A stretch of 39,014 nucleotides of DNA from a virus (taxonomy: Duplodnaviria > Heunggongvirae > Uroviricota > Caudoviricetes), in the IMG/VR virus record IMGVR_UViG_2703718823_000011. One strand, 5' to 3'. The notes under the pieces were generated by a model that did no database searches, had not been told where the DNA came from, and worked only from the letters and a program-made list of their open reading frames with translations. The position numbers and the translations under genes were made by a program. This document shows positions 20,686 through 22,030 of this stretch, one piece after another (the first letter of the stretch is position 1; every line of letters starts with the position of its first letter).

Positions 20686-21057
20686 ATGAATGAACATCAC
20701 ACTGTGGCAGCAACAGATGATTCAGGTCTTCAGGTCAGTGGTGACAATTCTGTCACGGTGCTGGCAGAAGTGCGTTGCAGTCGTTCGGCGTTTCGTCGTG
20801 CGGGGTTCCTGTTCACGCGTGGACGTCAGCAGGTTGAGGTCACCCCGGAGCAGCTTGCCCGACTGGAGGCGGAGCCATGCCTCACTGTGCGAATACTACA
20901 GACGCCTGCTGATGATGCGGGGAGCGTGGCGGGTGTGGTTCATGCAGTGGCCGGTACAGATTTAGCCGAAGCCGAAGCCGAAGCCGAAGCCGGACAGGAT
21001 GCTCCCCGGAAAAAGACCGGTAACAAAGCGAAACAGGCGAAAAAGGCCCACGCATGA
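20686..21057 (+). CDS. Head-module protein with an (Ala-Glu)n repeat and basic C-terminal tail
   Basis: 123 aa; GGAGGG ribosome-binding site; AEAEAEAEA encoded by (GCCGAA)x4 at 20965-20988. Confidence 0.6.
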   Translation: MNEHHTVAATDDSGLQVSGDNSVTVLAEVRCSRSAFRRAGFLFTRGRQQVEVTPEQLARLEAEPCLTVRILQTPADDAGSVAGVVHAVAGTDLAEAEAEAEAGQDAPRKKTGNKAKQAKKAHA

Positions 21058-21341
21058 ATTACGCCACTGAAACCGATATGCGGGCGCGTTACCGCGAGGA
21101 TTTGCTCAGGCCGTTACTGGCAGTGCCCCGTTCGGATGAGCCGGACACGCGCAAGCTGAACCGGGCGCTGACAGATGCGTCAGCCCTTATCGACAGCTAT
21201 CTGTCCGCCCGTTACACGCTGCCGCTGGAGGTTATTCCGGCAGTTCTTGTTCAGCACTGTTGCGCGATTGCCTTTTATTACCTGTGCGATCAGAGAGCCT
21301 CCGATCAGGCGCGTGACCGTTACCGCGAAGCGCTGGCCTAG
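21054..21341 (+). CDS. Mu gp36-like head protein, interrupted by an in-frame TAG (frame stays open to 21473)
   Basis: 95 aa to TAG at 21339-21341; the same frame continues 43 codons without a stop to a TGA at 21471-21473 that forms an ATGA overlap with the next gene. Confidence 0.6.
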   Translation: MNYATETDMRARYREDLLRPLLAVPRSDEPDTRKLNRALTDASALIDSYLSARYTLPLEVIPAVLVQHCCAIAFYYLCDQRASDQARDRYREALA

Positions 21342-21469
21342 CTGAAAGATGTCATGAACGGCAATGTGCCGGTCGGTGTGGATACGAACGGTGCGGCCCC
21401 TGAATCCGGGGATTTACCACAGGTTCAGTCTGATGCGGCGGTATTCGGGCGCAACCAGAAGGGCTTCAT

Positions 21470-22030
21470 ATGATTACGGAAACCGAACAGGCATACATCG
21501 CCCGTATCCGTGAGTATTTCGGGAATGAACTTGTGTCTGTTGACACGCATCCCGGCGACTGGAGCGACAGCGTACTGCGCACCATGCTGATTAACGCTCC
21601 GGCGATCTACGTTGCCTGGCTGGGTGCCGGTGAAGGCCGTACCCGTGGTCGCCTGGTCAGTCACTGGGTGTTCTACGTCATCGGCGACATGCTCAACGGG
21701 CGTGAGGCCAGCCGTCCCGGACTGTATCAGATTGTGGCCCGGCTGATTGCCGTGCTTAACGGCTTCAGAACAGAAAAAACCTCACCGCTTTACTTTGAAA
21801 AGGCGGTCAACGGTTACACCGAAACCCAGGCGAACAGTGGGGCCGTGATGTATGCGCTTTATTTCTCCTGCGAGGAAATGATCGCGCCACTGACGGATAT
21901 CAGCTCGCTGGACGACTTCCTGCGTCATTACGAAACCTTTGTGGAGCCGCCCGGTACGCCGCCGTTTGAGGCACATATTGATTTGCCGGGGAACACGACA
22001 ACGGCGGTCGAACCGCCGGAGGAACTGTAA
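21470..22030 (+). CDS. Mu gp37-like head-tail protein
   Basis: 186 aa ORF in a conserved position. Confidence 0.7.
   Translation: MITETEQAYIARIREYFGNELVSVDTHPGDWSDSVLRTMLINAPAIYVAWLGAGEGRTRGRLVSHWVFYVIGDMLNGREASRPGLYQIVARLIAVLNGFRTEKTSPLYFEKAVNGYTETQANSGAVMYALYFSCEEMIAPLTDISSLDDFLRHYETFVEPPGTPPFEAHIDLPGNTTTAVEPPEEL

Follow-up and report, generated by a model that had tools for sequence, protein, structure and literature searches.

The DNA analysed here, referred to throughout as the window, is the whole 39,014-nucleotide stretch of IMG/VR virus record IMGVR_UViG_2703718823_000011 (Caudoviricetes), whose genes, from transposase to mom, follow the Mu-type order. Its gp36/J-like head-tail adaptor gene is interrupted by an amber codon. 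The open reading frame (ORF) begins at ATG 21054 and stops at TAG 21339–21341 after 95 codons (21054–21341, plus strand; ORF list and PF07030), as read directly from the window and as an earlier note on this DNA had described. That note also held that the frame runs on to an end typical of a coupled phage gene, and the sequence bears this out. Past the TAG there are 43 sense codons (21342–21470), reading LKDVMNG...QVQSDAAVFGRNQKGFI, followed by a TGA at 21471–21473 that is overlapped, as ATGA, by the ATG of the gp37-like gene at 21470. The restored gene has 420 nucleotides and encodes 139 amino acids. By our own arithmetic, the chance of 43 open codons in random sequence is (61/64)^43 or about 0.13, and higher in GC-rich DNA, so the open run is unremarkable alone and the case therefore rests on homology.

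The adaptor gene and its truncated product

Both forms of the protein match PF07030 (Phage_Mu_Gp36, formerly DUF1320) well above its cut-off of 24.7 bits. The truncated product covers profile positions 1–92 of 124 (E=2.4e-26, 92.8 bits) and the restored protein positions 1–123 of 124 (E=3.5e-35, 121.3 bits). The restored protein also falls within phrog_195, 'head-tail adaptor', of PHROGs (E=3.7e-57), and its closest solved structures are those of phage Mu gene product J, namely 9khx/9knu (E=1.3e-33 over all 139 residues) and 5ydn. NCBIfam holds no family match for the protein, and the name 'gp436 family' could not be traced to any model. Relative to Mu gene product J (gp36), the restored protein is approximately 47% identical over its full length, with 139 rather than 141 residues, and it keeps both the Trp and the QVQSD..VF.R.QKGFI tail. 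The orphaned 43 codons align over their whole length with Mu J residues 99–141. The gene also lies in the same slot between the major head, gp35 and gp37 genes, within a Mu-type late operon ordered gpT, FluMu_N gp35-like, gp36, gp37 (PF08873), DUF2635 and sheath. The Mu-like major head subunit gpT (PF10124) is encoded at 19695–20642, which places the adaptor gene in the head module. A gp35-like gene (HI1506-related, FluMu_N by profile match) at 20686–21057 lies directly upstream of gp36, and the gp37-like gene (DUF1834, PF08873 in Pfam), the tail terminator in Mu, follows at 21470–22030, all on the plus strand. By sequence and position the gene is the orthologue of Mu gp36/J, and its description in the earlier note as a conserved gp36/DUF1320-type gene of family-typical size, about 139 residues when uninterrupted, holds well: intact coding sequences in relatives also encode 139 residues. 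As encoded, it falls short of full length. Mu J is uninterrupted, whereas the window copy is broken by an amber at residue 96, and the codons of its C-arm sit after the stop. The phage itself is a distinct Mu-like prophage of Escherichia coli of the Shiga toxin-producing (STEC) type, with only a weak 139-nucleotide DNA match (71%) to SfMu.

In Mu, the adaptor forms a dodecameric ring that joins head to tail and docks the tail terminator gp37, there being no separate stopper protein. Electron cryo-microscopy of Mu shows twelve gp36 C-arms inserted into the portal clip, where they anchor the ring (PMC11915804). Conservation is strong in the C-arm of the Mu-type adaptor. In an alignment of Mu J with Salmonella, Klebsiella and E. 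coli homologs, Trp96 is invariant, and from this residue to the C-terminus 20 of 44 positions are invariant (Trp96 and 19 downstream), including the terminal QKGFI. A much more distant member of the family, the Pseudomonas phage JBD30-type DUF1320 adaptor (8rka/8rkb/8rqe), matches over residues 1–120 (E=3.6e-08) and has Leu at the residue aligned with Trp96; the Trp is therefore invariant only within the Mu/enterobacterial subgroup. The crystal construct of 5ydn, which comprises 109 residues, is without the C-arm. Mapped onto the Mu structures, the amber at residue 96 is predicted to remove the end of the last helix together with the entire C-arm, both encoded by the orphaned plus-strand segment 21342–21473, and to leave most of the alpha-helical domain in place.

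The likely consequence can be judged from Mu itself. Mu gene 36 (J) mutants produce full heads and unattached tails, and act as tail donors in vitro (PMC4406740). By comparison with these mutants, adaptor function is most likely lost here, and the prophage would be unable to join heads to tails. The classical Mu J amber mutants (Giphart-Gassler 1981; Grundy and Howe 1985, as cited in PMC4406740) affect the same gene by nonsense mutation, with an expected phenotype of full heads and unattached tails that is suppressor-conditional. They were laboratory-induced, whereas the window allele is natural and belongs to a wild prophage lineage, for which the same phenotype would be expected. Two further features bear on translation downstream of the amber codon. 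An in-frame ATG (Met101), 12 nucleotides after the TAG, opens a 39-residue ORF (21354–21473, plus strand; ORF list), and translation could in principle restart there to yield a free C-arm peptide of 39 residues. An AAGGG Shine-Dalgarno-like motif (21459–21463, plus strand) lies 6 nucleotides upstream of the gp37-like ATG, through which the gp37-like gene is probably translatable without coupling to gp36.

A single base change at a Dcm site

Complete E. coli genomes annotate the orthologue as an intact coding sequence of 420 nucleotides (WP_001104956.1, 139 residues). When three intact copies are aligned to the window, TGG (Trp96) stands opposite the window TAG in each. The copy in CP55_Sichuan is identical to the window gene at the other 419 positions, the sole difference being G>A at gene position 287 (window 21340), and the lesion is therefore a single G>A transition at 21340. 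An alignment with homologs had been proposed as the means of distinguishing a broken gene from a naturally short one. The homologs span the TAG with a Trp rather than ending there, and the 43 downstream codons match their C-termini. Of the origins considered in the earlier note, a nonsense mutation in a prophage gene is thereby upheld, with TGG in relatives, one G>A change and an invariant Trp across the site.

The TAG is a genuine allele, rare and derived. An exact match to a 61-mer with the TAG at its centre occurs in 1 of the 203 complete genomes that carry the site (1 of 236 places). This genome is STEC2018-607, in which RefSeq labels the gene a pseudogene ('internal stop'), so that the adaptor pseudogene is already known. 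Over 37.7 kb, the window and the STEC2018-607 prophage differ by one single-nucleotide polymorphism (window 4551) and an 18-bp indel in a hexamer repeat. The exact 95-residue product is present on 29 contigs from many separate Sequence Read Archive runs and under two NCBI protein accessions, and it is because so many independent runs share it that the allele can be taken as real. The intact protein is found on more than 1,000 contigs. Two retrieved loci are 100% identical to the window. IMG/VR contributes one TAG copy against 20 TGG copies, and no exact copy of a TAG 30-mer was found in JGI metagenomes or GTDB representative genomes. Cluster proteins of 60–115 residues were considered as alternative nonsense alleles and rejected, as their ends are not one step from a stop and they are assembly fragments; the 91-residue form is cut off by contig ends. 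The cluster members inspected showed no further truncation terminated by a stop.

The mutated base lies in a distinctive context, a Dcm site, which the earlier note had not recognised. The ancestral sequence reads GCC TGG C, and its CCTGG at gene positions 284–288 (window 21337–21341, by alignment with the three intact relatives; now CCTAG) is the gene's sole Dcm (CCWGG) site. Opposite the mutated G, on the bottom strand, stands the methylated inner C of CCAGG, where a C>T change yields exactly CCTAG. Single-base substitutions could create a stop in the gene in 43 ways, 8 of which are transitions, and only the change of Trp96 to amber hits a Dcm 5-methylcytosine. Prophage-wide, 38 codons are convertible to amber by Dcm-site deamination, of which the adaptor codon alone has been converted. 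Of 5,426 complete E. coli genomes, 5,368 carry dcm-vsr. Dcm-site deamination is a classical route to amber mutations in E. coli. Coulondre and Miller reportedly described, in 1978, lacI amber hotspots at Dcm (CCWGG) sites, with CAG>TAG at CCAGG on the coding strand. The window allele is alike in that an amber arises by a G:C>A:T change at the methylated inner C of CCWGG, and differs in that TGG becomes TAG via the complementary strand, within a prophage structural gene and with a Dcm dependence argued from context. More generally, the methylated base of CCWGG sites is a hotspot of G:C>A:T changes in E. coli that very-short-patch repair counters only partly (PMC13250602, PMC3527292).

We infer from this context that the TAG arose by 5-methylcytosine deamination at the Dcm site. 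In the proposed sequence of events, the 5-methylcytosine on the bottom strand of CCTGG would deaminate to leave a T:G mismatch which, if missed by very-short-patch repair, would fix CCTAG and convert TGG (Trp96) to TAG. Translation would then end after 95 residues, with loss of the C-arm, the adaptor's anchor in the portal. As the Mu gene-36 (J) mutants suggest, induction would be expected to give DNA-filled heads and complete but unattached tails, with rare infectious particles at most arising from background misreading of UAG. The lesion is probably recent and passed on vertically with the host, because the orphaned 43 codons are unchanged and the carriers differ very little. Taken together, the event is very probably one of ordinary prophage decay by a recent nonsense mutation at a classical hotspot, and not recoding.

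The same TAG is found on two haplotypes. Haplotype A, which apart from the TAG base equals an intact haplotype, includes the window, STEC2018-607 (L004), L005, L006 and the IMG/VR locus L010. Haplotype B (L007) comes from two samples of an O157-like clade and shares only approximately 91% identity with the window across the 3.4 kb that were compared. Within the gene it differs from haplotype A by 10 synonymous changes, the nearest being 11 nucleotides upstream and 34 nucleotides downstream of the mutated base. This distribution suggests that the same TAG arose independently on two backgrounds. Independent mutation is the simplest explanation because a transferred patch would need to be shorter than 45 nucleotides to fit between gene positions 276 and 321, at which the haplotypes differ. 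The apparent recurrence of a hotspot knockout on two prophage backgrounds is the only mildly notable point of the case.

The strongest competing account, which we nonetheless regard as unlikely, is that a single ordinary replication error produced the TAG and that recombination between co-resident Mu-like prophages carried it to the second haplotype. Gene conversion would be possible in genomes that hold up to 4 copies of this prophage type, although its tract would be confined to the interval of under 45 nucleotides given above. CCWGG sites make up a small fraction of all E. coli G:C>A:T transitions (PMC13250602), which leaves room for an error unrelated to methylation; the change nevertheless falls on the one Dcm 5-methylcytosine among 43 possible nonsense changes. 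The second haplotype came from a search biased towards that one product. The inspected cluster members are free of other stop-terminated truncations, which counts against this account. Deamination at the Dcm site, occurring on both backgrounds, is favoured over this account. The allele would then illustrate clearly, in nature and apparently more than once, how an amber mutation at a Dcm site can inactivate a phage structural gene. It matters chiefly for annotation and for the interpretation of prophages: a 39-kb Mu-like prophage of this kind would pass most completeness checks, yet one base probably blocks the formation of infectious particles. No new biology such as recoding is indicated.

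Decoding of the amber codon and other explanations

Stop-codon readthrough had been offered in the earlier note as one origin of the split gene. Under this explanation the amber is decoded, by programmed readthrough or by a suppressor tRNA, to give a full-length working adaptor that is perhaps tuned to a low level. A stop followed by C is a relatively weak termination context, and a C directly follows the TAG. The downstream 43 codons are intact and the ATGA coupling is kept, features equally explained by the recency of the mutation. The stop is not conserved, however, as the TAG 61-mer is missing at 235 of 236 places and all relatives inspected have TGG. The prophage does contain a tRNA-like gene at 17787–17874, but ARAGORN detects no tRNA either in the window or in its STEC2018-607 counterpart, and the element lacks both a 7-nucleotide anticodon loop and a CUA and is also carried by prophages with an intact gene. 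In the host, where a check for amber suppressors had been recommended, supE and supF were examined, and neither is present in STEC2018-607, the near-identical carrier: its one tRNA-Gln(CUG) gene has the wild-type anticodon (no supE). Across the 5,426 complete genomes the supF allele occurs in none, and the supE allele in 155, which among the matches listed are K-12 laboratory strains. With the TAG confined to 1 of 203 genomes and no decoding tRNA detected by ARAGORN, readthrough is very improbable and a nonsense mutation is retained as the reading of the codon. As a specific candidate for a suppressor, the element annotated 'tRNA-OTHER' was ruled out, given that it has no CUA and no 7-nucleotide loop, that the arm in question is hypervariable and that it occurs in prophages whose adaptor gene is intact. 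E. coli uses the standard genetic code. Reassignment of TAG to pyrrolysine or another residue was ruled out as well, since relatives have TGG.

Two observations on tRNA genes stand apart from this question. In the metT cluster of STEC2018-607 (L032 10144–10735; NZ_CP075697.1 1145143–1145734) there is a single tRNA-Gln(CUG) gene, where K-12 has two, glnV and glnX. With no spare tRNA-Gln(CUG) copy, a supE-type suppressor should be poorly tolerated in the STEC2018-607 lineage. The tRNA-like gene of the window is conserved and is encoded on the minus strand, opposite to the late operon, with the Mu F-like and G-like genes on either side, and it scores 30.0 bits on the Rfam tRNA model (gathering score 29) in a sensitive local scan only. 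A search matched 67 complete genomes over at least 80% of the query, and PGAP annotates 'tRNA-OTHER' in every Mu-like prophage among the matches listed. Compensatory U-A to C-G changes occur in the acceptor and T stems, and neither the D arm nor the GGTTCGA loop varies. At the anticodon position the arm is hypervariable both in sequence and in length, the whole element measuring 81–88 nucleotides, and no CCA is encoded. A sigma-70-like promoter (TTGCCT-17-TAAAAT) lies directly upstream at 17911–17883. The element had no match in the phage collection searched.

A further explanation is that loss of the adaptor was selected, leaving the prophage as a producer of free contractile tails, similar to a tailocin, or as a harmless remnant. 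The tail, baseplate, fibre and lysis genes are all intact, as this would require, but so are the head and packaging genes, which is unexpected after domestication. The same knockout on two backgrounds might be taken as a sign of selection; the hotspot accounts for the recurrence without it, and the allele is rare, with 1 of 203 complete genomes and 1 of 21 IMG/VR matches. To our knowledge, no killing activity has been attributed to the tails of these prophages. Mu gene-36 mutants do make complete, assembly-competent free tails (PMC4406740), and a selected loss is still a far-fetched reading of the allele. A bolder form of the idea would have the Dcm hotspot at Trp96 cause lineages to lose head-tail joining repeatedly and predictably, the released tails serving as a tailocin-like weapon that benefits the host population. 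We regard this as highly speculative; if true, induction would free complete contractile tails together with tail-less filled heads. The least credible explanation is a sequencing or assembly error in a truly intact gene, also raised in the earlier note, for although the allele is one base from a very common intact one, the identical truncated product recurs on the 29 contigs of many independent runs, in NCBI records, in the complete STEC2018-607 genome and in an IMG/VR contig, and the bases 273T, 276G and 287A of L007, within 15 nucleotides, would not result from joining a TAG copy of the window haplotype to an intact O157-like copy.

Several points nevertheless tell against a simple loss of function by recurrent Dcm-site deamination. 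An AlphaFold2 model built from a 12-sequence alignment is poor (predicted local distance difference test score 47.5) and gives only a weak hint of a last helix at about residues 84–101, so the mapping of the helix and C-arm leans on the Mu structures. Loss of function in this prophage is likewise argued from Mu, and low-level natural readthrough or basal misreading of UAG may occur. In STEC2018-607, supE and supF were not found, and other amber suppressors, such as supD, supP or trpT-derived alleles, were not searched. Support for dcm is a population count, as the three synteny probes used in STEC2018-607 hit a lambdoid prophage and a rearranged core. Finally, haplotype B was found through a search for the identical product, which carries an ascertainment bias, and it adds one background from 2 samples.

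The remainder of the prophage and its host

The adaptor mutation appears, from the annotated genes, to be the only disabling lesion of the prophage: no internal stop was found in any other annotated coding sequence of the prophage. A frameshifted hypothetical gene is common to CP55_Sichuan, whose adaptor gene is intact. The fibre ORF at 31942–32838 is intact with 298 residues and has the size of the annotated CP55_Sichuan gene; RefSeq leaves it unannotated in STEC2018-607. An 'incomplete' tail protein on the opposite strand adjoins the recombinase gene, and resembles an alternative end for the fibre encoded within an invertible segment, as found in Mu. The segment in question is bounded by inverted repeats of approximately 91% identity at about 32467–32630 and 33741–33901 of the window, with a gene for a Gin-like recombinase alongside at 33964–34524. 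Within it lie a gene for tail-fibre assembly and, on the other strand, a tail-fibre gene truncated at its 5' end, an arrangement that looks like a host-range switch of the invertible Mu G-segment type.

The window itself (1–39014) is cut at gene boundaries, from the gene on the repressor side to the mom end, rather than at Mu-type ends. Upstream of the adaptor, a (GAAGCC)n hexamer repeat at 20960–20995 lies within the gp35-like gene and encodes an (Ala-Glu)n tract; its copy number differs among prophages that are almost the same elsewhere. The 18-bp difference in this repeat is the only indel between the window and STEC2018-607. The gp35-like gene measures 372 nucleotides in the window and CP55_Sichuan, 390 in STEC2018-607 and 399 in O157 PA20.

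In the host genome, an unrelated lambdoid prophage (L040, NZ_CP075697.1 4795416–4796900) contains two adjacent genes marked 'internal stop' and a frameshifted portal gene. The STEC2018-607 copy of the Mu-like prophage sits inside bcsA, which encodes the catalytic subunit of cellulose synthase and is annotated as two fragments (NZ_CP075697.1, L004 and L008 flanks). Carriers of this insertion are probably cellulose-negative, judging from the split gene.

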